Positions 2,786-45,718 of a stretch of DNA of 45,719 nt are shown here, one piece after another (positions within the stretch are counted from its first letter, which is position 1; the number at the start of each line of letters is the position of its first letter). The translations under genes and the position numbers were made by a program. The notes beneath the pieces are model-generated. The model worked only from the letters and a program-made list of their open reading frames with translations, was not told where the DNA came from and searched no databases. The stretch covers positions 1-45,719 of the IMG/VR virus record IMGVR_UViG_3300020432_000014. The stretch is one strand, 5' to 3'. This DNA is from a virus (taxonomy: Duplodnaviria; Caudoviricetes).

Positions 2786-3289
2786 TCACACAATCATCGC
2801 CATTGCATCATGCAATTCATGAGCATGCTTGAGCTCATCCTCTGCTATCTCTGCAATTTTCTTATCTTCTGGATGATATGCAAGGTATTTAATATAAGTT
2901 TCATACGCATGCTTTTCTATCTTCATGTTGATGTCGTAAGCGTCCATAGGATCGATGAGATAGTAAGCAACCATAATCCAATAATAAACCAAAACAAGAT
3001 GCTTGGCAAAGAAGCGGTCAACCCAATACTTGTTACCTTCTCTGAGCTCCATTTCTTCCAAATGTTCTGTTTCATTTAATGCCTGATAGAAGTGCTCCTT
3101 CATTAGATATATGTGTTCCTCTCCTCTAAGTCCCAGTGATTCACGAAAATGTAACACACTTATAAATGAGAAGTATGGTGCTCTTGCAATAACTTCTAAT
3201 ACCCAAAACCTTTGAAAGTCTCTACCTCTGTAGAGGAAGTCAAGGATGTATATTGTGGTATCTAATACCCAAGTGTTAAATTGTTTCAT
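2786..3289 (-). CDS. ptox: Plastoquinol terminal oxidase (PTOX, AOX-family di-iron protein)
   Basis: FWVLEVIARAPYFSFISVLH, NETEHL, EKHAYETY and DELKH: di-iron E / ExxH ligands. Confidence 0.95.
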   Translation of the reverse strand: MKQFNTWVLDTTIYILDFLYRGRDFQRFWVLEVIARAPYFSFISVLHFRESLGLRGEEHIYLMKEHFYQALNETEHLEEMELREGNKYWVDRFFAKHLVLVYYWIMVAYYLIDPMDAYDINMKIEKHAYETYIKYLAYHPEDKKIAEIAEDELKHAHELHDAMAMIV

Positions 3290-27935: not shown

Positions 27936-29780
27936 TTAGTCATCCTCATTTCTGATAAACGTTGTATATTCAACAGAAATGATGTCGGCTTGTGCTCCTG
28001 AGGTGTTTCCTCTCAAGATTTCACCGACTGTAAACTTAAATGTTGGGTCATTATCTACAATATTTTTTACTGTTAATGTAAATTGTCCTGCTTTAGGACC
28101 TGTTACACGACTGACAGTTGTTGCAGTCAACCCTGACGATAATCCTTCTACTACTTCTGGTATGTTAAACAAGGTAGTAGTGTTATATGTAATAACGATA
28201 GTTGCGGTTGATGTATGAGTATCACCGTCTCCCAATTCACCCGCAGCTTGGATAGTTGCAGTTAGAGGTGTTGCATTACCATCATATATCTGGTCTCCAA
28301 CTTGGAATAGAGTGGTGTTTTGTCCACCTAATGTTTCCTCAATACCATATTTAGACGAGGCGATGCCACCATCTAGATTAATTTGGTTTTCATACTCAGT
28401 GCCAGTATTAACAAGGTCAATAATTCCATCACCAACACCATTCAATTCATCATCATCTTCAAACTTTCTGTTAAGAATTAGACTTAAAGGATTAGTAAAT
28501 GCAACAATATCATTACCTTCAAACTCTATCAATACGTGTGGAGCAACACCAGTGCCACTAGACCCAGATGTGCCTCCTACAAATGCTATGATTTGAGACT
28601 TCTCACCAGACCTACCACCATCGATAAATGCTAATTCATCAACTTGGAATGTTAGATATAATGCTCTTTGAGTTGGGTCCCAATCATATACAATAGCAAC
28701 TCGGTTGTTAGATGATTCAACGACACGTCTTACTTTGTCAGTAACAGAGAATTGATACTGTGTAAGACCTGTATTAACATCATCTTGTAAACTATCCAAT
28801 ATAACCTTCTGGTCAAAACGAAAATTTACACCTCTGTCACATCCAGTGAAAGATGTTGGTGTCTTACCAGTATATCTAACAACCTCTCTTCCAATCAAAA
28901 ACTTACCTGATCCTGGATAGGGGTCAGTGGTTTCTATATTGACAACTGTGTCATTAGAATCAACATCTGTAAGTATACCAGACAGATTGTATAGGACACT
29001 GTTTAATGATTGACGATTTCTTGCAGTACGGATCAGGTCAGTATCTCTTGTAAAGATAACGCTTGGTGTTCCTTGATATCCGCCACCTCCCGATATAAGG
29101 TCGATGTTTGTGATGACACCTAAGTCAATAAATGCCTCAGCAGATGCACCACTACCTCCACCACCTATGATTTGTATGAGTGGTGGTGTCTCAAAGAATT
29201 CTCCTGCATTGGTCAAAGATATAGAAGATACCTCACCAAACTGGTTTACAGAAGCAACACCAGTTGCACCCTGTCCACCTCCACCAGAAATAATAATATT
29301 TACATCCTCTTCGGTATAGTTTCTACCTTGCTGTTGAATTGATAGACCTGTTAGTAGTCCTGTAATAGGGACTAATTCAGCACCACTACCTCCACCACCT
29401 TCTATAACTGCAGTAGCATCAAAGTAGTTATCACCAAATCCAGTCATCTGGATAAAGTCTATACCACCATCATCTTTTAAAAATACATTACCAGTAGCAT
29501 GACCATTAGATTCATCATCTTCAATTTTTAAACGTAAAGGGTCATAACCCTCACCTGGGTCTAATACCTCTACTGCTATAATTTCTCCTGCAACTCCTGC
29601 TATAACTGGTCTTAACACTGCCTCTCTAATAGGTGTGCCACAGTTTCCTATACGGAGTCTAGGAGGGTCGTTTGCATCGTATCCACTTCCACTGGCAGTA
29701 ACGTACACCTCTCTAACACCGTAGACGCTGTTAAACATCGGGACGATTTGTGCACCAGAACCAGGAACTGTACGGGTCAT
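27936..29780 (-). CDS. Baseplate-associated structural protein, 614 aa, with Gly-rich I-x-V-x3-G-x-GY...GGGG-x-GA repeats
   Basis: Repeat type shared with gp8 and the gp7-like protein; located in the baseplate cluster. Confidence 0.8.
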   Translation of the reverse strand: MTRTVPGSGAQIVPMFNSVYGVREVYVTASGSGYDANDPPRLRIGNCGTPIREAVLRPVIAGVAGEIIAVEVLDPGEGYDPLRLKIEDDESNGHATGNVFLKDDGGIDFIQMTGFGDNYFDATAVIEGGGGSGAELVPITGLLTGLSIQQQGRNYTEEDVNIIISGGGGQGATGVASVNQFGEVSSISLTNAGEFFETPPLIQIIGGGGSGASAEAFIDLGVITNIDLISGGGGYQGTPSVIFTRDTDLIRTARNRQSLNSVLYNLSGILTDVDSNDTVVNIETTDPYPGSGKFLIGREVVRYTGKTPTSFTGCDRGVNFRFDQKVILDSLQDDVNTGLTQYQFSVTDKVRRVVESSNNRVAIVYDWDPTQRALYLTFQVDELAFIDGGRSGEKSQIIAFVGGTSGSSGTGVAPHVLIEFEGNDIVAFTNPLSLILNRKFEDDDELNGVGDGIIDLVNTGTEYENQINLDGGIASSKYGIEETLGGQNTTLFQVGDQIYDGNATPLTATIQAAGELGDGDTHTSTATIVITYNTTTLFNIPEVVEGLSSGLTATTVSRVTGPKAGQFTLTVKNIVDNDPTFKFTVGEILRGNTSGAQADIISVEYTTFIRNEDD

Positions 29781-31292: not shown

Positions 31293-31300
31293 TATTTATG
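31293..31300 (-). promoter_or_regulatory. Late promoter CATAAATA overlapping the upstream stop codon
   Basis: NATAAATA 22 nt before ATG 31270. Confidence 0.6.
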
Positions 31301-32885
31301 TGCCATCAAAGGACTGTGCAGTAGAGTCGAAACTACTTGATGTAGAATCAAATCTATTCTGTAAATCTCCACCTCCACCAGAACCAGATACAGTTAGATT
31401 TGCCTGATTTGAATCTAGAGGAGAGTTTTGAGCATTGTTAGCAGGTACAGGTCCGATGATACGACAACGATACTTATACCCTGTCATATATGCTAAAGCA
31501 GTAACACTATATGACGCTGATGTTGCACCTGTGATAGCAGCAAATGCAAATCCACCATCAGTTGACCTATACCACTGATAAGAGATAGGTCCGTTTTCTG
31601 GTATGATAAGTGCATTGACTGTAAATGTCGCAGTTTCACCCGCATTGACTGTTGCACTTTGAGGTTGTAATGTAAACTGCAACGTTGGAGGAGTAGGTGC
31701 ATCTCCACCACCATCTCCACCACCCTGATCCTGTTGCACAGGAGATACAGTGTATGAGGTGTCTATAGTTTCTCTTGTTGTCAACCCAATCATATAAGGA
31801 AACTCTGCTTCACTCTGGTCATCAACAGATAAGAAATAAGCATAAGTGCCATTAGGATATTCTGGTGTTACACAGAATCTACCATTATGATAATCAAGGT
31901 CACCTGTGCCTTCTACATATTCCCAGTCTTCTATCAATGCACCAGCTGGAGGATTCTCTGCTGTGCTACCATAATCAGGTCTTCCTGCAACTTCTGTATC
32001 TCTAGCAGAATATGAGCTAGACATGGTAGAAGTGCCAGAAAGACTATCCCAAGGTTGTGTATATCCAAACGGACCGTAAACAGGAAATCCATCAAATGAT
32101 ATACCAACCATCTTAGAATGACCATCAGGATGTCTAATATTATCACCGTTATACTGAGTAGACCCATAGTAATCATTGTATGATGCTATTGAAGACCCTG
32201 CTCTCCAACAATCTAAAAAATGTGTATCATGATAATGATATTGACCAGACTGCTCTGGATGTCCACCACATGAATCTGCACCGAAACTTATAGGTAGATT
32301 AGGGAAATGAGCATTCCAACTAAAGTTTGTAGGAGGGTTACCACCAGTGCCTGCACTAGGGTTGAATAGTGCAACACCATTTGCAGCGATTGCTATAGTG
32401 CCCAGTGGTGTAGGAAATCTACCGTTTCTCTGGTCATAGTATTCGTATGTGCCAGTTACAGGTGTATTTGCTTGGTCATTTACAATTAAATCTAATCTAT
32501 CATCTGCTGCTAACCAACATTCTCCTGCAATAGATGTAAACGTTGTGCCTCTAAAAATATAAACTAATTTATAATCATCAAATGCAAATAAAATTCTATC
32601 TCCTACTCGAATGTTTGCATTTGCTCCTGTAAACAATGCAATATCATTAATGGATAAAGTTATAGACCTGATAAATCCGTCATGGGTATACTGATTAGAA
32701 TCAAAAACTCTACTAATACCAAATGTTCCTCCACGGTATAGGAAGTCATGGTCAAAATCCTGCTCTGTGACTGTGTTTGGGTTATTTTCATTAGGAAAAG
32801 TACCGTAAGATACAGGTCTTGGTAGACCATCAGATGCTACGGTTACAATCTTCGTTGCGTTATTAAATGATGCGGTTGCTGCCAT
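31296..32885 (-). CDS. YHYH-domain protein with a C-terminal Ig-like domain, 529 aa
   Basis: IAANGVALFNP, DSCGGHP...YHYH, HSKMVG...DGFPVYGP, DLD.HNGR..VTPEYP.GTYAYF. Ig-like part: QPQSATVNAGETATFTV...YQWY...Y.C. Confidence 0.88.
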   Translation of the reverse strand: MAATASFNNATKIVTVASDGLPRPVSYGTFPNENNPNTVTEQDFDHDFLYRGGTFGISRVFDSNQYTHDGFIRSITLSINDIALFTGANANIRVGDRILFAFDDYKLVYIFRGTTFTSIAGECWLAADDRLDLIVNDQANTPVTGTYEYYDQRNGRFPTPLGTIAIAANGVALFNPSAGTGGNPPTNFSWNAHFPNLPISFGADSCGGHPEQSGQYHYHDTHFLDCWRAGSSIASYNDYYGSTQYNGDNIRHPDGHSKMVGISFDGFPVYGPFGYTQPWDSLSGTSTMSSSYSARDTEVAGRPDYGSTAENPPAGALIEDWEYVEGTGDLDYHNGRFCVTPEYPNGTYAYFLSVDDQSEAEFPYMIGLTTRETIDTSYTVSPVQQDQGGGDGGGDAPTPPTLQFTLQPQSATVNAGETATFTVNALIIPENGPISYQWYRSTDGGFAFAAITGATSASYSVTALAYMTGYKYRCRIIGPVPANNAQNSPLDSNQANLTVSGSGGGGDLQNRFDSTSSSFDSTAQSFDGT

Positions 32886-32890
32886 GAGAT

Positions 32891-32897
32891 TATTTAG
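32891..32897 (-). promoter_or_regulatory. Possible late promoter CTAAATA overlapping the gp7 stop
   Basis: Only 5 nt before ATG 32885, so a transcript from it would be near-leaderless. Confidence 0.35.
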
Positions 32898-35800
32898 ATG
32901 TCATCGAAGATTTGGTCAGGTGTGAATCCTGTAATTACAGTTGCACCTGTTTGGACAGATAATATAGCAGATAGTGAGTAAACAGGAGTTGCACCCGCAG
33001 CAGTTATTGCTACACGATACTCATCACTATCATCAGCTTGTGTAGTTGGATTAGTAAAGTATGTTGCTTGGTTAGCACCAATAATGTTACTCCAAGTTTG
33101 TGTGCCATACTCTTTCTTCTGCCACTGATAATTCATTGCTTGACTGTTGGTTACAGTCGAAACAACTGTGAATGATGCAGTCTGACCTTGGTTAACAGTC
33201 ACGTTAACTGGGTCTTGAGTGATAGCGATTGTACCAGGTGTGATAGTTGTGCCACCAGTGTATTCACTACCCTCACCCGCGAGGACGTCAAATCCACCAT
33301 TGACAGGTGTGCCAGTAGGTTCTACGAAATCATCTGGGACTTCTGTCTCAACTAAAACTGAAGGCATAGCGTATCCAACACCAGCTGTCTTAACATCAAT
33401 TCTTGTAATACCAGTCAATGCCTTAATATTTGCATCAAATCCAGAAGATGATATAACGTCAACGTTAGGACGTGAAGTGTAACCGTCACCTGGGTTTGTG
33501 AGGATTGCGTTAGTTACTTGACCACGTGTGATAGTAGCAAGTGCTTGTGCATTTCTACCTTTAACTGAGCCTGTATATTCAAATGTAATCAAGGAGTTTG
33601 AAGACTCAATTAGAGCAACTTCACGATTAAATTCTTCACCCTCAATGAAGAGTTGGTCACCAGATTCTATTGGTGGGACAACAGTTGCTGCGATAACGTC
33701 AGCATCACTACCAATGTATGAGAATCCAACAAATGTGCTTCCTGCGCGAGGAGTCTCAGCGAAGATTATTCTACTACCAACCAATTCATATGCTGTACCT
33801 GGCTCTTGGATAATACCATTCAGTGAGACAATAATGTTGTTTTCTGGAAGTATAGTGTTAGAAGAAACACCTTCAGTCAATGTCAAGGAGTAGAATAGTC
33901 CACCACGCTTGAGGTTGAATGAAGACCTTAATGAATCAAACTCAAATGATATATCATCTAACTGTCTTAACTTACCAACGTAGTATCCAATAAATTCACT
34001 GCCAATGTCAGGTGGCTCGTTAAATTGTATCTTATCAGAGAATGCAACATAACTTGCGTTACCACCTGGGGGTTGTAGCACACCATTAACAAATATTAAT
34101 AGATGTCCTGCAGGGTCTGGGAAGTATGCTTCACCATTATTGATAGTAAGGTCAAATGTGCTTTGTGCTCCATCAAATCCTCTAAAGTATCTGTCAACTC
34201 TACCCTCAAGTGTGCGAGCAGATGATACTGCACCACCCCAACCATAGTCAGATTTAACAGTCATATTATCAGCAAATACACCTTGTGCATTTTCTACCCA
34301 TATAGTCGCTGTAATACCAGTCTGCTCAATAGCAACAACTTTACCATATACAGAAGATTGTGTATTTGTGTAACCTATAACGTTAGCATAGATTGTTGGG
34401 AAGTTACTTCCTATCTCAATCTTACCAATATTATTTGTAGAATTACCAACTTCTGATATATCAGCACCAGCTCCAACTGGGACTAGATTACCAATCCAAA
34501 GTTTGTGGACTCCATAATTAGGGTCATTAGTATCAACAATGTTTAGACCATTGATATACTTGGTAACTGTTGCTGTCCAACCTGGGTTTTTCTGAGTTGT
34601 GCCTTGTAGTAAAGTAATCTCATCACCAACGTTGAAGGTATCGCTAACACCAGTATCTGTAATTGCAACGCCTAGAGTTAATTCATAGATGTTTGTGCCA
34701 TGAATATACTGGTTAAGTTGAATTTGTGTGCCAGATATACCCTTAACATCGAGGATGTAATCTGTGACACTACCATATACAACATCACCTGTTGACCATT
34801 CATTTTCAATAGTTTCAACATCAATAGTAATACGTCCACCGTCTGTATCTGTCAAACTACCAGACTTATTGGTGTATGTTGAGAATAATACTTCAGCAGC
34901 GTTGTCTTTGTTGAATACGTAATCACCAGATTGGAAACTACCAGATTCAACGTTAATTAACATCCTATCACTCAAGTCTGCTGTAACAGTACCTGTAGCA
35001 CCAGATTCAACACCCTCCAATACATCACCCGCACTTATAGTGCCTGCTACATTTATAAGTTTTACAAATCCATTTAGGTCTCCATCCTTAGTTACAGTTT
35101 GAATTACCTTACCTGTGTTAGATGTAGCACCTTGCACCACTACATCCTCACCATTAACGAAGTTAGCAACAATACCTGATAATCCATAGTATTTCATTAA
35201 TACTCTGATGTTTGCTTCGTTAGCAAATACTGTGCCAATTTCAGATGTAGCATCTGATGTAGAACCGTAGATAACATCAGCAGGATTAAATCCACCCTGT
35301 ATTGGTGTCTCTGATGGGTCAGATGGATATACAGGAGCAGTCCTTGTAATACCAGACCTTCTAACAACAGAGAATATTTGTGATCCTGAGTTATTAGTGT
35401 CGACAAATACTTCTCTAAATCTACCATCATGTATGTAATGTGCACCAACTTCAAACCACTGTGCAGTTGCAGTCATAACATACCAGTAAGGTTGGTTAGT
35501 AAATGCAGTAACAGAAGTCTGAGATGCAGGGATATAAGTTAGAATATCACCACGACGGAATTGGTTTCCACGATTAATCCTGACTCTGTATTCTGCACGG
35601 TCAAATCCAACATCAACTGTAGGTGTAAGCACAACAAGAGCAGGGTCTGTGTTGTAGTCAATACCCATCTGATATGTCTTACCAAGATTCTCTGCGTCTG
35701 TGCTAGGTATCCATGTGACAGATGCCTCAGTTGGGAATTTAGATAATTCTAGAGCAAACTCGATTGGGTTGAGAGATGAGTCCATAATAAACTCAGCTGC

Positions 35801-38800
35801 TTCTTGGTTATACTCTAATCTTGCAGGAGGAAGATATACTGGATATCCTGCCCAGTCTGGGTCATCTCTATCATAAAGGACTGCCTTCATGTATTCTCTA
35901 ATTCTTGTGAGATAGTAAATTAGATGAGACCTAACAACATCTTGATATGCTATAAAGTTACCTTCACCATCAAACCAGTTTTGTAGTAGACGGAATGAGC
36001 CAGCATTACCATGAGTAATCATGTCATAACGGACTGCCTTCATTACATCAGTAGCAAACTGTAGTGTAGCGTTTGTGCTGCCGAAGTAAGTTACTGTAGC
36101 ATCGTATGCTCTTTGCTCAATAGCATATGTGTTGAATAGAAGTTGATTAGCAACTCTCTTATCATTCTGTGTGCCACCACCAAGTGCTGAAGATAATAGA
36201 CCCATCAAGGTATCAACAGCAGATGTTACGTTATAACATGTGCCTCCTTGATAATTTGTATTGCCATTGTAAGGGAATGTCTTAGTAACACTAGATGTTA
36301 GATAATTTGTATTGGCAGTTGCTGCTTGAATAATAGTATTGAATGGAATCTCCATCAATGTATTGATTGCTGACACAACCTCAGGGCATGTCATATTAGA
36401 CAAGTTATCAGAATCTTGACCACCATTACTTGTATCGTAAGTGACTGTAAGGTCTCTCTTAGGTAAGTCAGGAGTATACTTAACAGGCCATATGTATGGT
36501 AGTGTGTAAGTCCTGTTTAAAATATTGTTTGGATTGCTGATAGTATCATTAAAGATTGCCATCAAATTAGTTACTTCAGTGCCAACTCCGTCTGCTTCGT
36601 CACCTTGATATGATTGTGCAACTTGACGTGCACGATAGTATGAAAGGTCACCATTGATAGGCCATGCCCATGTAGAAACATCAGTAACATCTAATTCAGT
36701 ATCAATCACTGGGTCATGAGGACGTGGATATACATGCTGTGATGCAAACTGGTCAGAAGAGCAACTCATTGTCAAGGACTGAGGTGCAATAGTAATCTTA
36801 TTAGCAGTTGTTAGTGTATGTCCTGCAACTGTAAATGTTAATTCACCAGTCTCAGGGACGTAGTATGCATTAGTTGGTGTTAATGTGCCACCACCAGTGA
36901 CTGATATTGCACCAGAATCTGCACTTACAAATCTGTGGACATATCCACCACCAGAAATTAATGCACCTGATGTTGCATTTACAAATGTATGAGGATATTG
37001 TTGTCCTGCAGGAGATGCACCAATGTGGACTGTAATTGTGCCATCCTGTTTCTTGACTGCACCAGTAAGGGCAGAAACAAATGTGTGGTCATATTGCTGA
37101 CCTTGTTGTGATGCTCCAACATTAACAGTAATTACGTTACCAACAACAGATTCAACAGGTAACCATTCTTTTATTGCAGGGTCATCTGCTCTTGGATATG
37201 AGTGGTTAGTATTGTTGCCATCTTGTGTGCAAGTAAATGTAACACCGTCAGGAGCAATCTCAACCATTGTATTTGCTCTTGCAACACCATTTGATGCAGC
37301 ACTAATAAAGGCATGTGCATATCTGCTATCAGCAGCACCTATACCAACATTAACTGTGAATGTATCTGTAGTGTGTGATTTAACAAGAATCCACTTATCA
37401 TACCATGGGTCTGTTGGACGTGGATAAGAATGCTGAGTTGCATTACTATCTTTTGTGCAAGTAAATGTAAATGCGTTTTGGACAAACTTGACTTTACCAC
37501 CAGTTGTTACGCCATGACTCGCAGCAACCACAGTTAAGTCACCAGTGTTAGCGTCATATGTGGCTCCTGTAGGGCTCATGTTAGTAGGAGCAGTGAATCC
37601 AGAAACACTGGGCAATGTAAGACCTAAGTCTCCAGTTGCAGCGTTATATGTTGCGGTAGATGGAGTATGTGCTGTGCTACCTACACCTGTGATACCGATT
37701 GAAGAATTATACGCCCAATCTGTAACTCTTGGATATGCATGGGTAGTTTGATTACTATCCATTGTGCATGTAAAGTTGAGTGACTCACCTAAGAATCTGA
37801 CTGTCTCTGTTGAGTGAATAATATTGTTATTTGTGTTAGAAACATATGTGTGTGAATGTTGTCCAGTTGCACCCGCTACACCAACGTTGATTGTGAAAGT
37901 ATTTGCATCTGCTGCAGTCACAATCATCATCTTGTTGTAATATGGGTCGGTAGTTCTTGGATATGTGTGGTTAGTTGCTCCACCATCCATAGCACAATTA
38001 AATGTAACATCCTTAACGATAACTCTGTCACCCTTCTTAATGCCATGCCCATTGGATGTCATTACCATAACACCAGTGGCAGGATCATATGTCGCACCTG
38101 TTGTTGTTAGTAGTGATGTGTCTCTGAAGTCATGATTACCAACAGTAAGCACCATCTCACCAGTTGCAGGGTCATAAGTTGCACCGCTAACATCATATGT
38201 TGACTTAGGTGATGCACCAACGTTGACTGTAAATGTATTGAGAGTTGTTGACTCACCATTTGCTACAGTGCCATTTGTTGCTGCAAATCCACCATCACCA
38301 GTGTCAGACATCAATCCAGATGCTGCACCTAATCCAGTAAATCCAGTTGAAGTTTCTGCACTACCTATTGGGTCACCGTCAATCCAAAGTCTTACACGAC
38401 CTCTTCCAACATCTATGTCTCCACCAATTTTAACTTCCCAAACTAATTCATGCTCTTCATCATCCATATATTGTGTGATATCAGCAACAGGGATATCAAG
38501 CATTGCAAGACCATTATCAGATGAGTAAGTTGCACCACCAGAGTATGACTGATTACTGCTTCCTGCACGAATTCTAAAGTATGTGCCACCGTCTCTAAAT
38601 CCAACCCAAACACCTTGACTTGTGCCACCCAATTCAAATAAACAAGCATCAACCGCAGTTGATGGAAGCACAGTTACACATCTGAATACTCCATCGTCAG
38701 TTGGGTCAACACCAACGTTGCTATTTTCTGCAACATCAATATTATTTTTCTTCTGATGGAAAGTCCTTGTAAGTAAATTATTTGGAGTCTGTGTTGCACC

Positions 38801-41800
38801 ACCAGATGCATCAACTAATTTAGTTGTTGGTTTGTCAGTTGCATTATAGAATCTTTGATATCCATAGCCAGCATTATCTGTGATAATCTGGTCTTTCATT
38901 GCACGGATAGCAAGGTCTTTTGCTTTATTAAATATCCAAAGTGTTTCAGTAGATTGACTGTTAACATGGATTAAAGCAGACCCACCATAACCTACGTAGA
39001 ATTCTGCACCATACTGGACGTAGTTGTCACCACCATACTTAAGGTTGAATACCATCGCTCTTAGTAAGTCAGTAACGTCATGGACGCAATTTATAGGACC
39101 ACCTGGGATTGATAATGATGGGAATTGAATTCTACCTAACGCTACAGCATTCTCAGCAATATAACGAATGTTTGCATCAATAGCATCACCACATCTTTGA
39201 TAGATTTCATCTCTAGGATTCTGCTCATAAGTTTGGACAGGTGTTATTAGATTTGTATTACCAGAAATATAATCTCTACCAAAACCATTTCTTAATGTTA
39301 ATATTGCAATATCTTTAGCAATCTTAATAGTTGTAATAGATGCTTCCCATTCTGATTCAATATGTTTTAATGAATTGTTTTCAGGCTCAACATACAATGC
39401 AGATGCATCATATACCTTCTCATTACAATCGTATAGAAGGTCATGTGACATAGCATCAAGAATGTCTACAATATCATCTTCACAATTTACAGGACCACCT
39501 GGGATTGCAAGAGATGCATACTTAGACATATCATTCATTATCGCAACAGATTCTTGTGCAATCAATCTCTTATTGCGTTGAATCATGTCAACAGAGTCAA
39601 TGAATCTATCGTTAACACTACGTGTTTGCTGAGGATATCCTTCTGGGTCGATAGTTACAGTATCGTCTCTATATGCACCACGTGCAGTCCATACAGGAGA
39701 ATAGTAATCATCTTGGTATGCTGCAGGGAATCCTAAAGATGCTGCAGTTTCACCTGGGCTGAGTAGTAACTGATTTACTGCCTTCATTGCCAACATCTTA
39801 GAGAAGTCAAATGCATCAAGCATTGGATTCAATTCATTCTCTACATGTAGAATATTATTCTGACCATCTAAGTATTGGTCAATAACATAATCAATATTAT
39901 ATGTGCCTCCTGTTGCTAAGTCACTGATGACAGCAGGAAGAATAAATTGCTTAACGTCTCTCAAACAATATGGCTCACCATAGCCAGGCATGACTAAGAA
40001 ATCATATTCTGTGCCATCGATAGTTTGTGCATACTTGTCTTGAATATAACCAACTGTCTCTTCTGCAATGTAATCTCTATTTTTCCAGATAGCAGTACCA
40101 CCATCTCTGAATCTATTACCAGTAGGTGCAAGCACTTCTAATAATGCATCCATCAATGCTCTAACTTCATTCTGGACTCCAATGGATGCAGGAGTTGCAA
40201 AGTTATTTGGTATTCTCAATTTCTGTGTATACTGACCACTTAAATCATAACTTGTAGATGTAATAACCTGATTACATAAATCAGCAGCATAATCCCATGC
40301 AAATAGAGTTTGTAAAATCTCATTTTGGACATGCTTTAATTTACCACTAACTTCTAAGTAAGTCCTAGCAGTATAAAGTGTATGATAATTACCACCTTCT
40401 CTAAGGTCTTTAACAAGAGCACCTAAGATATAATCTTTTGTATCACGAATACATGTCGCAGTACCACCACTACCATATCCACTGCTTCCCATACCGTCCC
40501 CAGGAATTGTAAAGTCTGGGAATTGTGCTGCCATATATCCGACTGCTTCTTCAGCAATCCACTCAGCATTAAGTAAGATAATTCCTGCAGCGTCACGATA
40601 AGATGCTCTACCTAAATCAACGTCCTTAATGATGATATCATCAGTACCATAATTAATGCTTCTAGCAGTAGCAGATGATGTGCGTTGACCAGTAAATGTT
40701 GCATAACATTCTGTGGTAGAAAGTATAAATGGTGCTTCACCATCTAAACCAATAGAAATCTTTTGTCTAGTGTAATCAATCTGTGATGGAGGACTAAAGT
40801 CTGCTACGTAATCTGCTTCTCCTTTTCTAATGCAGAGTAAATCAATATATCCTGTAAATCCTGTATTCTGTTGGAATGATGTGCCAATCCATGCAGGAGC
40901 ATAAAGATAATTGTTTGTATCTGCAGCACTAGCGACTGTATTACCATTAAGATATAAAGTAATAACACCACTAGACCTAACAACTGCAAGATGTTGCCAT
41001 ACAGTTGCTTGGACTGTGCCACCAAATACTAATACACCTGTGCCATTTGCAACACGGATAGTTGAGCCATCTAAGTAGATTCTAAGACCAGTTGATGCAG
41101 ATGTCCTTCTAAAATCAAATATATGTTGTGTGCCAGATACAGCATCAGGTCTAAACCATGTCTCTATAGTAAAGTCATCTGTGCCATATGTGAAATCATA
41201 ACTGTCTGCAGCAGCAAGATAACCATTAGAAGGAATTCTAATTGATTTGCTACCAACTAGAGTTGTCTTTCTTTCTATAACACTTGTTGTGCAATTACTA
41301 TTTGTTAAAGTAGAGTTAGTAATAAATTCATCTTGTTGGAATGTGCCTGTAATAGCATTAGAGAATATCCACTTAAGACCAGTATTAATACCAATAGCAG
41401 ATGTGGTAGCACCAGAGGTCATACCCTTAATCTGGTCACCAGTTACAAATAGACCACTAGACTTATCCTTATAAGCAAGTTTAATAGTCCTGATAGTTTC
41501 ACCATCAACAAATGTGCCATCTGTAATAGATGCTAATGCATTAACATTATCAAGGTCACCATGACTAATTGCAGTTGTTGCTATGTCTGCTAATGTTGCA
41601 ATATATGCTTGGACGTTTGCACAGTTTTGTATAGACTGATTTCTACCAGATGAGTAGTTGGGGTCAAAGTATTCTGCCTTTGTGCCACCACCCAAGAATA
41701 CTGCATTGGGTAATGCAGAGATGAATGTATGAGTATAACCACCACCAGACTTAACTGCTCCTGCATTAGCAGATGCAAATGTGTGAGCATAGATTGGCTC

Positions 41801-44800
41801 ACTATTCTGTGTTGCAACAAATAATGTGATTGTAGTGTCTGTCCTTGCAATAACTTGTAGAGGCACGTTTGATGCAGGGTCACTATTACGAGGATAAGAA
41901 TGAGTAGTAGCATTATCATCCATTGTGCAAGTGAATGATATTGAATTATCATCTAATTTAATATACTCGCCAACGTCTAATGTATGAGCACCAATAGTCA
42001 ACACCATCATACCTGTAGATGGGTCGTATGTTGCATCTGTTGGTGTCCAAGATACTAATGGAGATGTGCCAACATTAAGGTCAATAGTTGTAGCAGTTGG
42101 ATTCTGTACTTGAATTGGGGTATTGAATGCAGGGTCGCCCGCTCTAGGATAATCATGGAATGTCTCATCATTATCCATGCTGCATGTAAACCTTATAGAA
42201 TAAGGTCTAACTGTGACACTATCAGCTGTAGTCCATGAGTGTCCTCCACTCAATGTTAGTGTCATAATACCAGTGCTTGCATTATAAGTTGCACCAGTTA
42301 CATCTTTCTCTTCTAATTCTACTGAGCCGTTGGTATAAGGTCCTGCATATGTTGTTGGGTCTTTCAACATATAACCTGTTTCAGAAACAGTAGAGTTTCT
42401 CTGGAAGTAGAGCAAGTTGTTGATTGCTCTAAACATCAAGTCTCTTGCTTTAGTAATTGCAGTGATTGAAGGACCTTCCTCACCAGTTAAACCGTTAGCG
42501 ATAGGACTTCCTGCAGCAGTGAAATACTTCTTAGTAAATTCTACAGTATTATAGTTACCACCATCAGAAACATCTTGTGCTACCGCATCAATCATCAGAC
42601 CTAAATCACGACGACATTTAGTCTGGCCTGTAGTGTATGTGCCGACGGTTTCATCAGGTAACTCTGTTAGGTTACCATTGGTTAGAGTTGTATCTACAAT
42701 ATCATGCAATGTTGTGATTGCTGCCTGCACATCAGAGCAATTATCTGTGCCATTGTTAGATGTGTTTGCTCCTGCTGTGCCATAGTCATCATTAGGTGAT
42801 GGGTCAGCAGTAATACCATGACCAGTATATCCACCTTCATCTACCTCATTATGAGGTTTAAATGTGATGCCAGCTAGACTTCCAGATGATGCAGTATAGT
42901 TAGTAGTAATATTGTTTACTATTGCCAACTTCATCCATTCTTTTGCTCTAGTGAAACCATAACGTGTTTCAGCAGATTCGTTGTTTACATATACAAAGTT
43001 ACCGTCTGCATCAAAATAATCTTGTGATAATTTACGTGTATAAACGTTACCACCTCTAAAGATGTCAACAGAGATTGCATCGATGTAATAATGAAGGTCA
43101 CGGATACACTTACCTGGGTCGCTGACTGTAAGAGATGGATACTGTGTAATCATCTCATCATATGCTACAGCAGCAATATAATCTTTATTAAGTTGAATTA
43201 GACGATATGCATCAGAATATCTTGACCAAGGATTCGTAATGATGTCACCTGGGAAATAGAAGTATGGATGCTCTACTGCAATCTGTGCATCGGCAAAATC
43301 GATAATTTCTTGTCTATTGCCAAGAATCATTGCAGAAGCATCTTTAAATCTGTTTTCTGCACTGCCATGGAATGAAGAGTTAGGATTATTGTAACTAACT
43401 CTCTTATTGATAATATTTGCTCCTGCAGAGATTGTGCCACCTGATAATCCAGTATAGATAACTTCTGTGCTTCTTACTTGCTCAAAGTCTAAGAAATCAT
43501 CATTTATTCTCTGAGATGAATCATACAACTCTGTAGGTGTAATTGAAGACTTAGAAATGTCATCTACGATTACGTTGGGGTTTGTGATGCTAACAAGACG
43601 CTCAAACAGTAATCCAAAGAATGTAGAGCCAGGGTTGATAATTAACTCGTCTACAACGTCATTAGTTACAGGATCGCTGTATGGAGCGATATATGTGATT
43701 TGACCAGCTATCTTAGACCTAGCAGAGTAAATATATTCGTTTAATCTTAAATCAAAGATTCCAGTCTCGAATCTTGGAGTACCTGATGTTTTACTTACAA
43801 CAATACGGTCACTAATGACTCCTTGGTCGTCAATATTAGTTTCTTCAATAATTGCAGTATCACCTTCTAAATTAGTGATAGATTCGCCAAATTCAAAGAT
43901 AGTTTCGCTATTAAGTAGAGTTACGGACTGTATAAGTGCTGAGAATAATTCTCCTCTTACAATCTCTTCATTAAGTTGGAATGTGCCACCAGTTACGTTA
44001 ATAACGTCAATATGTGCTAATCCACTGTCAATAACAGTTGCAAAGGTGTCTGAAAACTCACCTTGCACCTGTTGACCTAAAGTTGGGAAAATACCAAACT
44101 CATTTGTGCCATTTGAGTCATAAAGTGCAATTCTGTAGATAGGAGTTGGTGTAACACCTAATTCTCTGTAATTAACTTTAGAAGGTGGTTTGGGTGGCTC
44201 AGCAAAGACTAAGTTACCACCAACAACTTGATATGACTCACCTGGGGCTTGAATAACACCATTAAGGGTAATCATCAACTGGTCTTGCTGCACAATGACT
44301 TGCTCGCCTTCTACAGTGATTGGGAATTGCTTATCAATACCATTAAACCTACCAGAGATGTCATCCATCTTTTTAACGATAGATGTCAAGATTTCTTCGG
44401 AAGATGTCAATCTTCTCTTTCTGAATAAGACTTCTGTGTTGTTATAGTCAGTATAGATTGGTTGAGCAGCACCAAATGATGTAATCTCATTTACATTACT
44501 ATAGTTGTTAATATTAACCTGTTTAGTAAATTCTGTGCCGATATTTCTTCCAGAAATGTCCTTACCACCAGTCAACTCAAGTTGACCAAACATATTGAAT
44601 CCTGCAGGGTGATTATTCTCTAATACCTGAGTTTTCCAATCTGTAATAGGAATTTGTGACTTAATAACATAAGAGAAGTTTTGATAGAAGTAAGAGTCTT
44701 GAATCTTCTGGACAATCTCTGATGGTTTACCAACATCATCAATAAACCTACCTGGGGTGCGAGTTAGTGACCCAATATTCAATACACCACGAGCAATGCT

Positions 44801-45718
44801 GAGGTTATCAATAACACCAGCTGCTTTTGATATAGCTCCAGTTACTCTTTCTCCTGCAATCCAGTCACCTGTATAATCAACAATCTTAAGAATCTTAGGA
44901 CCTATTTGCCAACCAGTGTTTGTAGAAACTTTACCTTCTGCAGTTGCTTGCTCTGGACTACTACCTTGATATACTTCTTCACCTTCTAAGAATCTTGATG
45001 TCTCTACAACTGCCTCTGCTGCTCCACCAAATACCTCAGTAAGTAATGTCTGACGACCACTACCTTGTGTCAAGAATGTGATGTAATCTCCACCTTGTGC
45101 TGCTTGTAAAGTCAAACCAAAACGTATTTGGTCAGATTCTAATCCTGCTGCCTCTCCTGCAATAGCATAGTAAGTCTGTCCTTCAACTAAAGATGTTAAA
45201 CCCGCACTACTTGGTTTTGGTAATTCACCTTCTGTGCTTCCAACACTATCAGCACGGAATTGGACTTCTGCACCAGTTGTAATACCATGTGGGAAGTTAA
45301 ACTGTAGATAGTTAAGGTCTAAGTTAACAACATAGTTAAATTCTGATTTTAGAGTTACAGTAGGCTCAGATGAATATCCTCCACCTGGGTTTTTGATAAT
45401 AATCTCAGAAAGACGATTATTCTTAATAACTGCCTCAGCAGCAGCCCCTGTGCCTCCACCACCTTCGATTATAACAGCAGGAGTTGAAGTATATCCTGAA
45501 CCTGGATTTGTAATCTTAATCTGTGCAAGTATAGATGTATTGAAGAGTTGTAAGTTTACAGGGAATGTAATTTCTGGTTTTAGAGTGTAGTCATGTGAAT
45601 ATCCGAAACCAAATTCATTATTCTTCAATCTCTTAATCTTACCGATATTCTTACCAGTTAAGAATACAGATGCACCACTACCTTCAGAAGGAATGATAAC
45701 ATTTACTGCACCACCAGA
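32894..45718 (-). CDS. g7: Giant baseplate wedge protein (gp7-like, >4270 aa), 5'-truncated by the window
   Basis: The frame stays open from 45628 to the window end (SGGAVNVIIPSEGSGASVFLTGKNIGKIKRLKNNEFG...). KIQDSYFYQNFSYVIKS...W......HPAGF motif of T4-like gp7. Carries LamG-like, Ig-like and several repeat modules. Confidence 0.85.
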   Translation of the reverse strand, partial: SGGAVNVIIPSEGSGASVFLTGKNIGKIKRLKNNEFGFGYSHDYTLKPEITFPVNLQLFNTSILAQIKITNPGSGYTSTPAVIIEGGGGTGAAAEAVIKNNRLSEIIIKNPGGGYSSEPTVTLKSEFNYVVNLDLNYLQFNFPHGITTGAEVQFRADSVGSTEGELPKPSSAGLTSLVEGQTYYAIAGEAAGLESDQIRFGLTLQAAQGGDYITFLTQGSGRQTLLTEVFGGAAEAVVETSRFLEGEEVYQGSSPEQATAEGKVSTNTGWQIGPKILKIVDYTGDWIAGERVTGAISKAAGVIDNLSIARGVLNIGSLTRTPGRFIDDVGKPSEIVQKIQDSYFYQNFSYVIKSQIPITDWKTQVLENNHPAGFNMFGQLELTGGKDISGRNIGTEFTKQVNINNYSNVNEITSFGAAQPIYTDYNNTEVLFRKRRLTSSEEILTSIVKKMDDISGRFNGIDKQFPITVEGEQVIVQQDQLMITLNGVIQAPGESYQVVGGNLVFAEPPKPPSKVNYRELGVTPTPIYRIALYDSNGTNEFGIFPTLGQQVQGEFSDTFATVIDSGLAHIDVINVTGGTFQLNEEIVRGELFSALIQSVTLLNSETIFEFGESITNLEGDTAIIEETNIDDQGVISDRIVVSKTSGTPRFETGIFDLRLNEYIYSARSKIAGQITYIAPYSDPVTNDVVDELIINPGSTFFGLLFERLVSITNPNVIVDDISKSSITPTELYDSSQRINDDFLDFEQVRSTEVIYTGLSGGTISAGANIINKRVSYNNPNSSFHGSAENRFKDASAMILGNRQEIIDFADAQIAVEHPYFYFPGDIITNPWSRYSDAYRLIQLNKDYIAAVAYDEMITQYPSLTVSDPGKCIRDLHYYIDAISVDIFRGGNVYTRKLSQDYFDADGNFVYVNNESAETRYGFTRAKEWMKLAIVNNITTNYTASSGSLAGITFKPHNEVDEGGYTGHGITADPSPNDDYGTAGANTSNNGTDNCSDVQAAITTLHDIVDTTLTNGNLTELPDETVGTYTTGQTKCRRDLGLMIDAVAQDVSDGGNYNTVEFTKKYFTAAGSPIANGLTGEEGPSITAITKARDLMFRAINNLLYFQRNSTVSETGYMLKDPTTYAGPYTNGSVELEEKDVTGATYNASTGIMTLTLSGGHSWTTADSVTVRPYSIRFTCSMDNDETFHDYPRAGDPAFNTPIQVQNPTATTIDLNVGTSPLVSWTPTDATYDPSTGMMVLTIGAHTLDVGEYIKLDDNSISFTCTMDDNATTHSYPRNSDPASNVPLQVIARTDTTITLFVATQNSEPIYAHTFASANAGAVKSGGGYTHTFISALPNAVFLGGGTKAEYFDPNYSSGRNQSIQNCANVQAYIATLADIATTAISHGDLDNVNALASITDGTFVDGETIRTIKLAYKDKSSGLFVTGDQIKGMTSGATTSAIGINTGLKWIFSNAITGTFQQDEFITNSTLTNSNCTTSVIERKTTLVGSKSIRIPSNGYLAAADSYDFTYGTDDFTIETWFRPDAVSGTQHIFDFRRTSASTGLRIYLDGSTIRVANGTGVLVFGGTVQATVWQHLAVVRSSGVITLYLNGNTVASAADTNNYLYAPAWIGTSFQQNTGFTGYIDLLCIRKGEADYVADFSPPSQIDYTRQKISIGLDGEAPFILSTTECYATFTGQRTSSATARSINYGTDDIIIKDVDLGRASYRDAAGIILLNAEWIAEEAVGYMAAQFPDFTIPGDGMGSSGYGSGGTATCIRDTKDYILGALVKDLREGGNYHTLYTARTYLEVSGKLKHVQNEILQTLFAWDYAADLCNQVITSTSYDLSGQYTQKLRIPNNFATPASIGVQNEVRALMDALLEVLAPTGNRFRDGGTAIWKNRDYIAEETVGYIQDKYAQTIDGTEYDFLVMPGYGEPYCLRDVKQFILPAVISDLATGGTYNIDYVIDQYLDGQNNILHVENELNPMLDAFDFSKMLAMKAVNQLLLSPGETAASLGFPAAYQDDYYSPVWTARGAYRDDTVTIDPEGYPQQTRSVNDRFIDSVDMIQRNKRLIAQESVAIMNDMSKYASLAIPGGPVNCEDDIVDILDAMSHDLLYDCNEKVYDASALYVEPENNSLKHIESEWEASITTIKIAKDIAILTLRNGFGRDYISGNTNLITPVQTYEQNPRDEIYQRCGDAIDANIRYIAENAVALGRIQFPSLSIPGGPINCVHDVTDLLRAMVFNLKYGGDNYVQYGAEFYVGYGGSALIHVNSQSTETLWIFNKAKDLAIRAMKDQIITDNAGYGYQRFYNATDKPTTKLVDASGGATQTPNNLLTRTFHQKKNNIDVAENSNVGVDPTDDGVFRCVTVLPSTAVDACLFELGGTSQGVWVGFRDGGTYFRIRAGSSNQSYSGGATYSSDNGLAMLDIPVADITQYMDDEEHELVWEVKIGGDIDVGRGRVRLWIDGDPIGSAETSTGFTGLGAASGLMSDTGDGGFAATNGTVANGESTTLNTFTVNVGASPKSTYDVSGATYDPATGEMVLTVGNHDFRDTSLLTTTGATYDPATGVMVMTSNGHGIKKGDRVIVKDVTFNCAMDGGATNHTYPRTTDPYYNKMMIVTAADANTFTINVGVAGATGQHSHTYVSNTNNNIIHSTETVRFLGESLNFTCTMDSNQTTHAYPRVTDWAYNSSIGITGVGSTAHTPSTATYNAATGDLGLTLPSVSGFTAPTNMSPTGATYDANTGDLTVVAASHGVTTGGKVKFVQNAFTFTCTKDSNATQHSYPRPTDPWYDKWILVKSHTTDTFTVNVGIGAADSRYAHAFISAASNGVARANTMVEIAPDGVTFTCTQDGNNTNHSYPRADDPAIKEWLPVESVVGNVITVNVGASQQGQQYDHTFVSALTGAVKKQDGTITVHIGASPAGQQYPHTFVNATSGALISGGGYVHRFVSADSGAISVTGGGTLTPTNAYYVPETGELTFTVAGHTLTTANKITIAPQSLTMSCSSDQFASQHVYPRPHDPVIDTELDVTDVSTWAWPINGDLSYYRARQVAQSYQGDEADGVGTEVTNLMAIFNDTISNPNNILNRTYTLPYIWPVKYTPDLPKRDLTVTYDTSNGGQDSDNLSNMTCPEVVSAINTLMEIPFNTIIQAATANTNYLTSSVTKTFPYNGNTNYQGGTCYNVTSAVDTLMGLLSSALGGGTQNDKRVANQLLFNTYAIEQRAYDATVTYFGSTNATLQFATDVMKAVRYDMITHGNAGSFRLLQNWFDGEGNFIAYQDVVRSHLIYYLTRIREYMKAVLYDRDDPDWAGYPVYLPPARLEYNQEAAEFIMDSSLNPIEFALELSKFPTEASVTWIPSTDAENLGKTYQMGIDYNTDPALVVLTPTVDVGFDRAEYRVRINRGNQFRRGDILTYIPASQTSVTAFTNQPYWYVMTATAQWFEVGAHYIHDGRFREVFVDTNNSGSQIFSVVRRSGITRTAPVYPSDPSETPIQGGFNPADVIYGSTSDATSEIGTVFANEANIRVLMKYYGLSGIVANFVNGEDVVVQGATSNTGKVIQTVTKDGDLNGFVKLINVAGTISAGDVLEGVESGATGTVTADLSDRMLINVESGSFQSGDYVFNKDNAAEVLFSTYTNKSGSLTDTDGGRITIDVETIENEWSTGDVVYGSVTDYILDVKGISGTQIQLNQYIHGTNIYELTLGVAITDTGVSDTFNVGDEITLLQGTTQKNPGWTATVTKYINGLNIVDTNDPNYGVHKLWIGNLVPVGAGADISEVGNSTNNIGKIEIGSNFPTIYANVIGYTNTQSSVYGKVVAIEQTGITATIWVENAQGVFADNMTVKSDYGWGGAVSSARTLEGRVDRYFRGFDGAQSTFDLTINNGEAYFPDPAGHLLIFVNGVLQPPGGNASYVAFSDKIQFNEPPDIGSEFIGYYVGKLRQLDDISFEFDSLRSSFNLKRGGLFYSLTLTEGVSSNTILPENNIIVSLNGIIQEPGTAYELVGSRIIFAETPRAGSTFVGFSYIGSDADVIAATVVPPIESGDQLFIEGEEFNREVALIESSNSLITFEYTGSVKGRNAQALATITRGQVTNAILTNPGDGYTSRPNVDVISSSGFDANIKALTGITRIDVKTAGVGYAMPSVLVETEVPDDFVEPTGTPVNGGFDVLAGEGSEYTGGTTITPGTIAITQDPVNVTVNQGQTASFTVVSTVTNSQAMNYQWQKKEYGTQTWSNIIGANQATYFTNPTTQADDSDEYRVAITAAGATPVYSLSAILSVQTGATVITGFTPDQIFDDI
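36677..38250 (-). repeat. Five interleaved copies of a ~95-aa domain (ATYD..TG / FTC..D....H.YPR..DP / T.TVNVG / Y.HTFVSA)
   Basis: Seen in the translation; two more copies at ~41695-42306. Confidence 0.9.
40785..41255 (-). other. LamG/concanavalin-A-like lectin domain within the gp7-like protein
   Basis: DFTIETWFRP, WQHLAVVRSSG.ITLYLNG, FTGYID signatures. Confidence 0.8.

Follow-up and report, generated by a model that had tools for sequence, protein, structure and literature searches.

A predicted barrel block inside a giant structural protein of a probable cyanophage

The window (the whole stretch of DNA analysed here, 45,719 nucleotides) carries on its minus strand an open reading frame (ORF) at positions 32894–45718, which encodes 4274 amino acids and whose 5′ end lies beyond the window; the complete protein (P0007) is 7473 amino acids long. 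The protein annotated as 'gp7' in P-SSM4 is 46% identical to the window protein over 714 columns and 39% identical over 700 columns, and downstream of the ORF lie genes for a YHYH protein, gp9-like and wedge-like proteins, gp8 and a VrlC-like protein. Homology to annotated cyanophage gp7 and a position upstream of gp9, gp8 and VrlC thus assign the ORF to the gp7-like proteins; as regards coliphage T4 gp7, the homology ties the window protein only to the cyanophage proteins of that name. One module of 105 residues, recognisable by four motifs (A to D), recurs in this protein and is laid out as follows.

32894..45718, minus strand: C-terminal 4274 amino acids of the gp7-like giant structural protein (homology to P-SSM4 gp7, gene order).
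41696..42310, minus strand: second nest in the window protein, of two copies, A1B1C1[A2B2C2D2]D1 (motif scan; C2 by pattern, under the weight-matrix threshold).
38243..38722, minus strand: N-terminal body of the host LamG/ConA-like beta-sandwich (ESM Atlas 0.93, a lead; 103 homologues; profile 144 bits).
38207..38242, minus strand: C0, the strand with which the circularly permuted outer barrel (copy 0) begins (motif scan, profile; modelled contacts with A0 and the end of B0).
38120..38206, minus strand: A3, the hairpin that opens copy 3; this copy is inserted in the C|D loop of copy 0 (motif scan, profile; modelled contacts with C3 and D3).
37820..38119, minus strand: copy 4, an uninterrupted leaf barrel within the A|B loop of copy 3 (110 bits; barrel match at model residues 51–156).
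37676..37819, minus strand: B3, middle part of copy 3, with the invariant Cys, YPR and D (motif scan, profile, two-chain model).
37589..37675, minus strand: A5, the hairpin that opens copy 5; this copy is inserted in the B|C hairpin of copy 3 (motif scan, profile; pLDDT 94–96).
37280..37588, minus strand: copy 6, an uninterrupted leaf barrel within the A|B loop of copy 5, at depth 4 (125 bits; barrel matches at model residues 31–139).
37046..37279, minus strand: B5, C5 and D5, the rest of copy 5 (rejoined copy 107 bits; 3 of 50 structural matches listed).
36956..37045, minus strand: C3 and D3, closing strands of copy 3 (motif scan, profile, two-chain model).
36890..36955, minus strand: D0 with the short linker from D to A by which the permutant is closed (motif scan, profile; D–A junction class, commonest spacing 26).
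36671..36889, minus strand: A0 and B0, remainder of the permuted outer barrel (rejoined copy 106 bits; two-chain model).
36623..36670, minus strand: last strand of the host LamG-like domain, after the 524-residue insertion (last-strand weight matrix, empty-site orthologues).

The larger block has exact boundaries at 36671–38242 and comprises 524 residues. The 160 residues ahead of it have 103 homologues, including tail proteins of Roseobacter phages, and fall with Laminin_G_3 clusters in the ESM Atlas (features 0.93, 26 of 30 matches), a placement that serves as a lead only; Pfam gave no match at the host-domain position. The last strand on its own scores about 0 bits with a profile HMM. A weight matrix for this strand, derived from the 103 homologues without the barrel block, ranked the site just after the block first in the entire protein in five of five proteins, and in empty-site orthologues the two flanks are joined directly. 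The proposal in the initial annotation that a lectin-like beta-sandwich is interrupted here is thereby confirmed, and the block has been inserted exactly ahead of the final strand of the LamG-like domain. No convincing target-site duplication was found in a three-way DNA alignment of the junctions or in the flanks of large alleles.

Gene position and strong homology are shared with the gp7 and giant virion proteins of T4-like cyanophages (P-SSM4 gp7, S-TIM4 ORF101, PHROG 701), among which P-SSM4 gp7 has a tree of 11 units and S-TIM4 ORF101 one that is smaller. The available portions of the literature on these proteins treat them as divergent structural proteins, with the order of the repeats undescribed. 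ORF101 of S-TIM4 sits between gp6 and gp9, shares 51% identity with the beginning of the window ORF, is expressed late and has been detected in virus particles (PMC6224464). From gene order and the virion mass spectrometry of this orthologue, a baseplate location of the gp7-like protein is likely. A weak Baseplate_wedge match, below threshold (E 1e-5), lies in the N-terminal part of the P-SSM4 orthologue, which corresponds to a region outside the window. The virus is likely a T4-like marine cyanophage, since plastoquinol terminal oxidase and ferredoxin oxidoreductase genes occur elsewhere in the window and 315 of the 324 phage records are named Synechococcus, Prochlorococcus or Cyanophage.

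Several further observations concern the surroundings of the block. The two host-derived genes, for the ferredoxin oxidoreductase (PHROG 7278) and the plastoquinol terminal oxidase, lie at 480–1181 and 2786–3289 (minus strand). Two ORFs at 27936–29780 and 31296–32885 (minus strand) match different portions of a single 'baseplate wedge' family of 1383 positions (PHROG 708), which suggests that they are the counterpart of a gene that is single in relatives. A 92% identical protein (P0010) is labelled as belonging to a Flavobacteriales genome bin, probably a mis-binned phage contig. Also, the helical, weakly phycobilisome-like repeats of the window protein look nested (window 36000–40600, minus strand; residues 1707–2312 and 3035–3180 of the open ORF): four consecutive repeats match profile positions 1–110 without the last helix, several segments resembling that last helix come after the LamG-like domain and barrel block, and a repeat at 42637–42368 picks up again at 41659–41561, around the two-barrel nest. 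The helical-repeat profile was built from six sequences only, and the closing helices score just 9–12 bits; if these repeats are nested, the barrel tree would sit about four levels deeper.

Motif order and predicted fold

Position-weight matrices, based on some 600 intact homologous units and refined in three rounds of retraining, detected exactly 20 motifs in the block, five each of A, B, C and D, in the order CAABCDBAABCDBCDCDDAB. This reproduces letter for letter the order read in the initial annotation, C0[A3(4)B3{A5(6)B5C5D5}C3D3]D0A0B0, in which five copies are nested four deep; the three insertion loops claimed there (A|B, B|C and C|D) also held up. A tandem-array reading of the block would need 10 edits and was ruled out, canonical brackets need four, and brackets with the outer copy read as C-D-A-B need none, bearing out the suggestion that this copy is circularly permuted: copy 0 is entered at its B|C hairpin and is hence permuted. 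No zero-edit parse occurred in 3000 shuffles of the same 20 letters with all rotations allowed. Misassembly is an unlikely source of the nesting, because the copies in the window are only ~60–87% alike as DNA and independent contigs, 90–100% identical, yield the same motif string.

A failure of the rejoined discontinuous copies to align with intact ones had been named in advance as a refutation of nesting. Against a profile of 591 intact units, from which the window and its three closest proteins were left out, the rejoined copies 0, 3 and 5 aligned end to end (profile positions 4–105) and scored 105.7, 101.3 and 106.5 bits, with 109.9 and 124.6 bits for the intact copies 4 and 6 and a 5th percentile of 94 and a median of 130 bits for intact homologues. 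Each rejoined set is a complete unit, the choice of partner for any one segment being beyond the reach of this test. Among intact units one Cys is invariant (1.0), two His are conserved at 0.97–0.99 and an Asp at 0.96; copy 5 of the window is without the first His. The Cys and His strands adjoin in the model, and a metal or disulfide role is possible.

For the pairing of segments we turn to predicted structures. The whole block, modelled with AlphaFold2 and nine natural alignment rows selected for identical motif order, reached a mean pLDDT of 83.6 and a pTM of 0.77; split segments were as confident as intact ones, except for the first 20 residues (<50) and the last 90 (67–88 per block of ten), and single continuous strands crossed the B3–A5 and D5–C3 junctions. 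Copies 5 and 6 modelled with 25 sequences gave a pLDDT of 95.6 and a pTM of 0.87. Distant segments thus fold together into one domain in the predicted models, and the second check named beforehand, whether AlphaFold returns beads of sequence-adjacent segments, came out on the side of nesting. Barrels of similar fold are present in the PDB, and model confidence may partly reflect likeness to them.

Additionally, we modelled the block as two chains, C0–B3 and C3–B0, with the cut chosen by the analyst and copies 5 and 6 omitted. The pair scored 0.75, and the best of three controls 0.00; of 157 solved complexes, 116 pass the mark applied, as do 2 of 215 mismatched pairs, counts that are approximate when own alignments are used. 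The runs shared at least 93% of their contacts, with a partner pLDDT of at least 84. In the lowest-error contacts, C0 touched the second A0 strand and the final B0 strand, A3 touched C3, and D3 touched both B3 and the beginning of A3; copy 4, adding three residues, lay almost outside the interface. Chain 2 could have closed on itself as a C3-D-A0-B0 barrel; the model did not do so. These models support the C0–A0/B0 and A3/B3–C3/D3 pairings that the brackets demand, and the block is predicted to be a forked arm of five six-stranded barrels. As for the branched, tree-like baseplate appendage put forward in the initial annotation, nested and forked models favour its shape, and its placement on the baseplate comes by way of gene order and the orthologue's mass spectrometry.

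A structural search with the model of copies 5 and 6 aligned 47 of the 50 matches listed to the intact copy, and the other three aligned one 72–80-residue barrel over model residues 1 or 2 to 214, which is split copy 5. In the predicted model the unit is a six-stranded closed beta-barrel that shares its topology with the FCCH and endosialidase barrels (Z 7.5–8.4, 78–82 residues aligned). Individual comparisons gave Z 7.5–8.4 and rmsd 2.5–2.7 over 78–81 residues for the Uba1 FCCH domain, Z 7.6–8.3 and rmsd 2.0–2.4 for the phi92 endosialidase barrel and Z 7.5–7.8 for the FCWL1 tail protein, values that are middling on the tool's own scale, at 13–25% identity. No sandwich-barrel hybrid motif stood among the 50 matches listed in each structural search, the top ones being FCCH, endosialidase and reductase-type barrels. 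At the curated cut-off no Pfam profile, including E1_FCCH (PF16190) and End_beta_barrel (PF12195), matched the window copies; PF12195 appeared at E 0.13 in two of 25 homologous pieces and as an atlas neighbour at 0.92, which is a lead. A PDB sequence search returned nothing meaningful, Foldseek found no PDB match at E 0.001 or better, and matches in BFVD were homologous cyanophage proteins with poor global superposition.

Alleles of the site and motif grammar in relatives

Across 113 loci we found 47 distinct alleles of the insertion site: four filled ones, 18 empty orthologues of cyanophage type, and 25 empty domains that belong to other proteins. The block is thus missing in 18 of 22 distinct cyanophage-type alleles, and an uninterrupted host form exists (L095, L096, L107–L130 and others). 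Filled alleles are either of the window type, with five copies, or large trees of 24–30 units that parse 8–10 deep with 7–10 edits and all start C-A and end D-D-A-B. When window segments were matched to the large alleles, C0, A0 and C3 took the same position in 4/4 cases each and D3 in 3/4, and interior segments scattered with no clean mapping. A simple deletion of a large tree, considered as the origin of the window tree, is unsupported given this scatter.

The empty allele L096 belongs to a close relative, with 91.9% identity to the window over residues 693–2207, 93.6% over residues 3015–4274 and 76% in the host domain; DNA identity across the three parts is 90.9%, 81.2% and 92.1%. Because this close relative is without the block, it shows that the block is dispensable, and its pattern of identities would fit cassette exchange between close relatives. 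L096 carries one extra intact barrel just upstream, in a helical-repeat loop (ORF residues 1504–1623); the window and L096 show a reciprocal presence and absence of barrels within one apparently swapped cassette.

The motif grammar was examined in 124 proteins, made up of the 120 best hits, three annotated proteins and that of the window, in which 6946 of 7193 motif neighbours are of bracket-allowed types. For 69 distinct blocks of 12–60 letters, with longer blocks omitted and relatives not independent, total edits came to 338 as brackets, 1274 as tandem arrays, 669 for neighbour-preserving shuffles and 1417 for plain shuffles, with 64 of the blocks under their own shuffle mean and three above it. 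Only 8 of the 69 parse with zero edits, and 24 with two or fewer. Missed motifs, further insertion loops and permutants account for part of these imperfect parses, not all: allowing permuted units lowered the cost in 14 of 27 poorly parsing blocks, and isolated D-A-B-C permutants number 5 versus 17 isolated A-B-C-D units. Relatives use two more insertion loops, one separating the Cys strand from the YPR motif and the other YPR from DP, so that the family has at least five usable ones. Other permuted entries take the form of D-A-B-C units, alone or nested, and of blocks leaving after the YPR motif (P0100, P0103, P0107, P0108, P0110; P0054; P0013; L002 of S-SSM7; L358 of S-TIM4).

Spacings at the junctions are narrow (C-to-A 20–21 in 644 of 750, D-to-D 18 in 439 of 558, D-to-C 16 in 211 of 291), and each junction class carries its own conserved linker residues. 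Such classes are as expected from a rare origin followed by copying, which we infer may have been their history; structural constraint could look alike.

Growth, exchange and possible role of the tree

The best overall account, to which we assign a probability of roughly 0.6, is an exact nested barrel insertion that is swapped by recombination and serves as an optional surface-contact branch at the tail base. Its parts differ in standing: the nested architecture is highly probable, spread by recombination reasonably probable, and the adhesion role of the arm an even call. The two chain ends of the predicted barrel lie side by side, and a whole barrel could therefore plug into a loop of another. 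The chain would run outward to the leaves and complete each open barrel on its return, yielding a tree in which the LamG-like host bears copy 0, copy 0 bears copy 3, and copy 3 bears two branches, copy 4 and copy 5, the latter carrying copy 6. Each child would be held by two strands, making the arm stiffer than a chain with single tethers and leaving the main chain path unbroken.

Growth of the tree may have started from a few junction types that arose rarely and were then copied by double cross-over between paralogous copies, the exchange of an intact unit for a 'unit plus child' giving recursion. Whole cassettes would pass between co-infecting phages via flanking homology, and a permutant would follow from two sibling units trimmed at both ends. 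The arm might add weak binding sites or reach toward cell-surface glycans. An optional surface-contact branch is favoured because ORF101 is late and present in particles, the arm is rooted in a lectin-like domain, and related barrels, the FCCH-like domains of siphovirus tail tubes, face outward (PMC13576161). Arguing against a contact role, none of the 11 distinct host-adaptation mutation sites in S-TIM4 ORF101 falls in the barrel region (~15% of the protein, with ~1.6 expected, a weak test; PMC6224464), and most alleles are empty.

The same nested fold could instead behave as a nearly neutral accordion, in which barrels are gained and lost wherever loops tolerate them, selection removes only unbalanced products, and the arm has no binding role and acts at most as a spacer or steric cover. 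We regard this as rather unlikely: frequent empty alleles (18 of 22 of cyanophage type), a copy number of 7 to 30 among the 120 best hits and the absence of adaptation sites from the barrels agree with it, whereas the ~3,150 residues added by large alleles are unlikely to come free of cost, core residues are 90–100% conserved in the units, and the cassette has apparently been exchanged between 91–92% identical genomes.

It is improbable that this fold, with this role, grew by tandem duplication in pairs (X to XX, followed by Y to YY) instead of whole-unit transfer. X[XY]Y and XXYY are one string, which leaves unproven the statement in the initial annotation that insertion was recursive and not by tandem duplication; whole-unit indels nevertheless favour it. 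Among 62 pairs at ≥75% identity, 37 of 49 motif-bearing indels (roughly de-duplicated) are single and lie within 15 amino acids of a multiple of 105, with ~30% expected by chance, and no lone part-length indel without a partner was found in these pairs. The remaining 12 appear paired around a retained piece, with sums of 334 or 522, and runs like ABCABC...DD are common, both in line with paired duplications, but neighbouring segments of one type in the window resemble each other only moderately. Least credible is a fold in which real motifs form a strand-swapped or linear chain, or pair across oligomer copies: motif counts do permit crossing pairings, and the pairing is a prediction, made for one copy of the protein, but brackets beat neighbour-preserving shuffles in 64 of 69 blocks, intact copies have the standard internal spacing, the models yield nested pairings and whole-subtree indels are clean.

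Recursive self-nesting is itself published, contrary to the initial annotation, which knew of no description of this architecture: Si3 of cyanobacterial RNA polymerase arose by recursive self-insertion, with eight domains at six levels (PMC13114784), and in its crystal structure four of eight motifs are discontinuous (PMC10895346). In common with Si3 (RpoC2, beta′, sandwich-barrel hybrid motifs), the phage block is a small beta domain inside its own copies, branched and set in a host-domain loop, with discontinuous copies that are each interrupted by complete copies in properly nested order. The two differ in protein and apparently in fold, the phage host being a virion protein, and the phage block, unlike Si3, has a circularly permuted outer copy. 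Tree shape varies among close relatives of the phage (0, 5 or 24–30 copies; parsed depth up to 8–10), whereas Si3 is reported at 8–10 domains; the Si3 crystal structure is solved, whereas the phage block is known from predicted models. Location sets the block apart from the Si3 family proper, the host being a phage structural protein and not the trigger loop of RNA polymerase beta′.

The best structural matches of the phage unit are the E1 FCCH domain, endosialidase barrels and the FCCH-like domains of tail tubes. FCCH and the endosialidase barrel are themselves inserts, and the endosialidase barrel binds sialic acid. These known FCCH and endosialidase barrels are single-copy and are not known to be self-nested, and the invariant Cys, YPR-x-x-D and His motifs are peculiar to the phage unit. 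We found no description of nesting in cyanophage gp7 in the literature searched, which excludes subscription papers and preprint supplements, and the accessible portions of PMC1079782, PMC3037559 and PMC13612043 describe none for these cyanophage proteins. What the locus adds is a permuted root, an exact graft into a LamG-like domain and a set of alleles with 0, 5 or 24–30 copies, one of the empty relatives being 92% identical.

Almost all repeat proteins are interpreted as beads on a string, an assumption built into domain callers and aligners; here, a single site has natural alleles of 0, 5 or ~30 domains that follow a bracket grammar with permuted entry points. The deepest published case that we found, in RNA polymerase, has six levels, and the alleles described here parse 8–10 deep. 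The five-copy allele is small enough for expression and structure determination, with the empty sister allele as a natural control, and the order in which deep nests fold, what branches cost and gain, and how recursive growth works can be tested; the block is also a natural scaffold for branched single-chain designs. It offers a structural way into the largest virion proteins that remain unexplained in abundant marine cyanophages. More tentatively, junction types may act as rewrite rules of a generative grammar, copied by recombination into any barrel, inner ones too, with permutation re-rooting trees at any loop and grafting them into unrelated domains, and populations evolving arm shape as a heritable, swappable trait. 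If this is true, these phages would carry branched, many-valent host-contact arms of 0 to 30 barrels, at most about ten deep and set inside nested helical repeats, and would diversify their adhesins by topology, not sequence.
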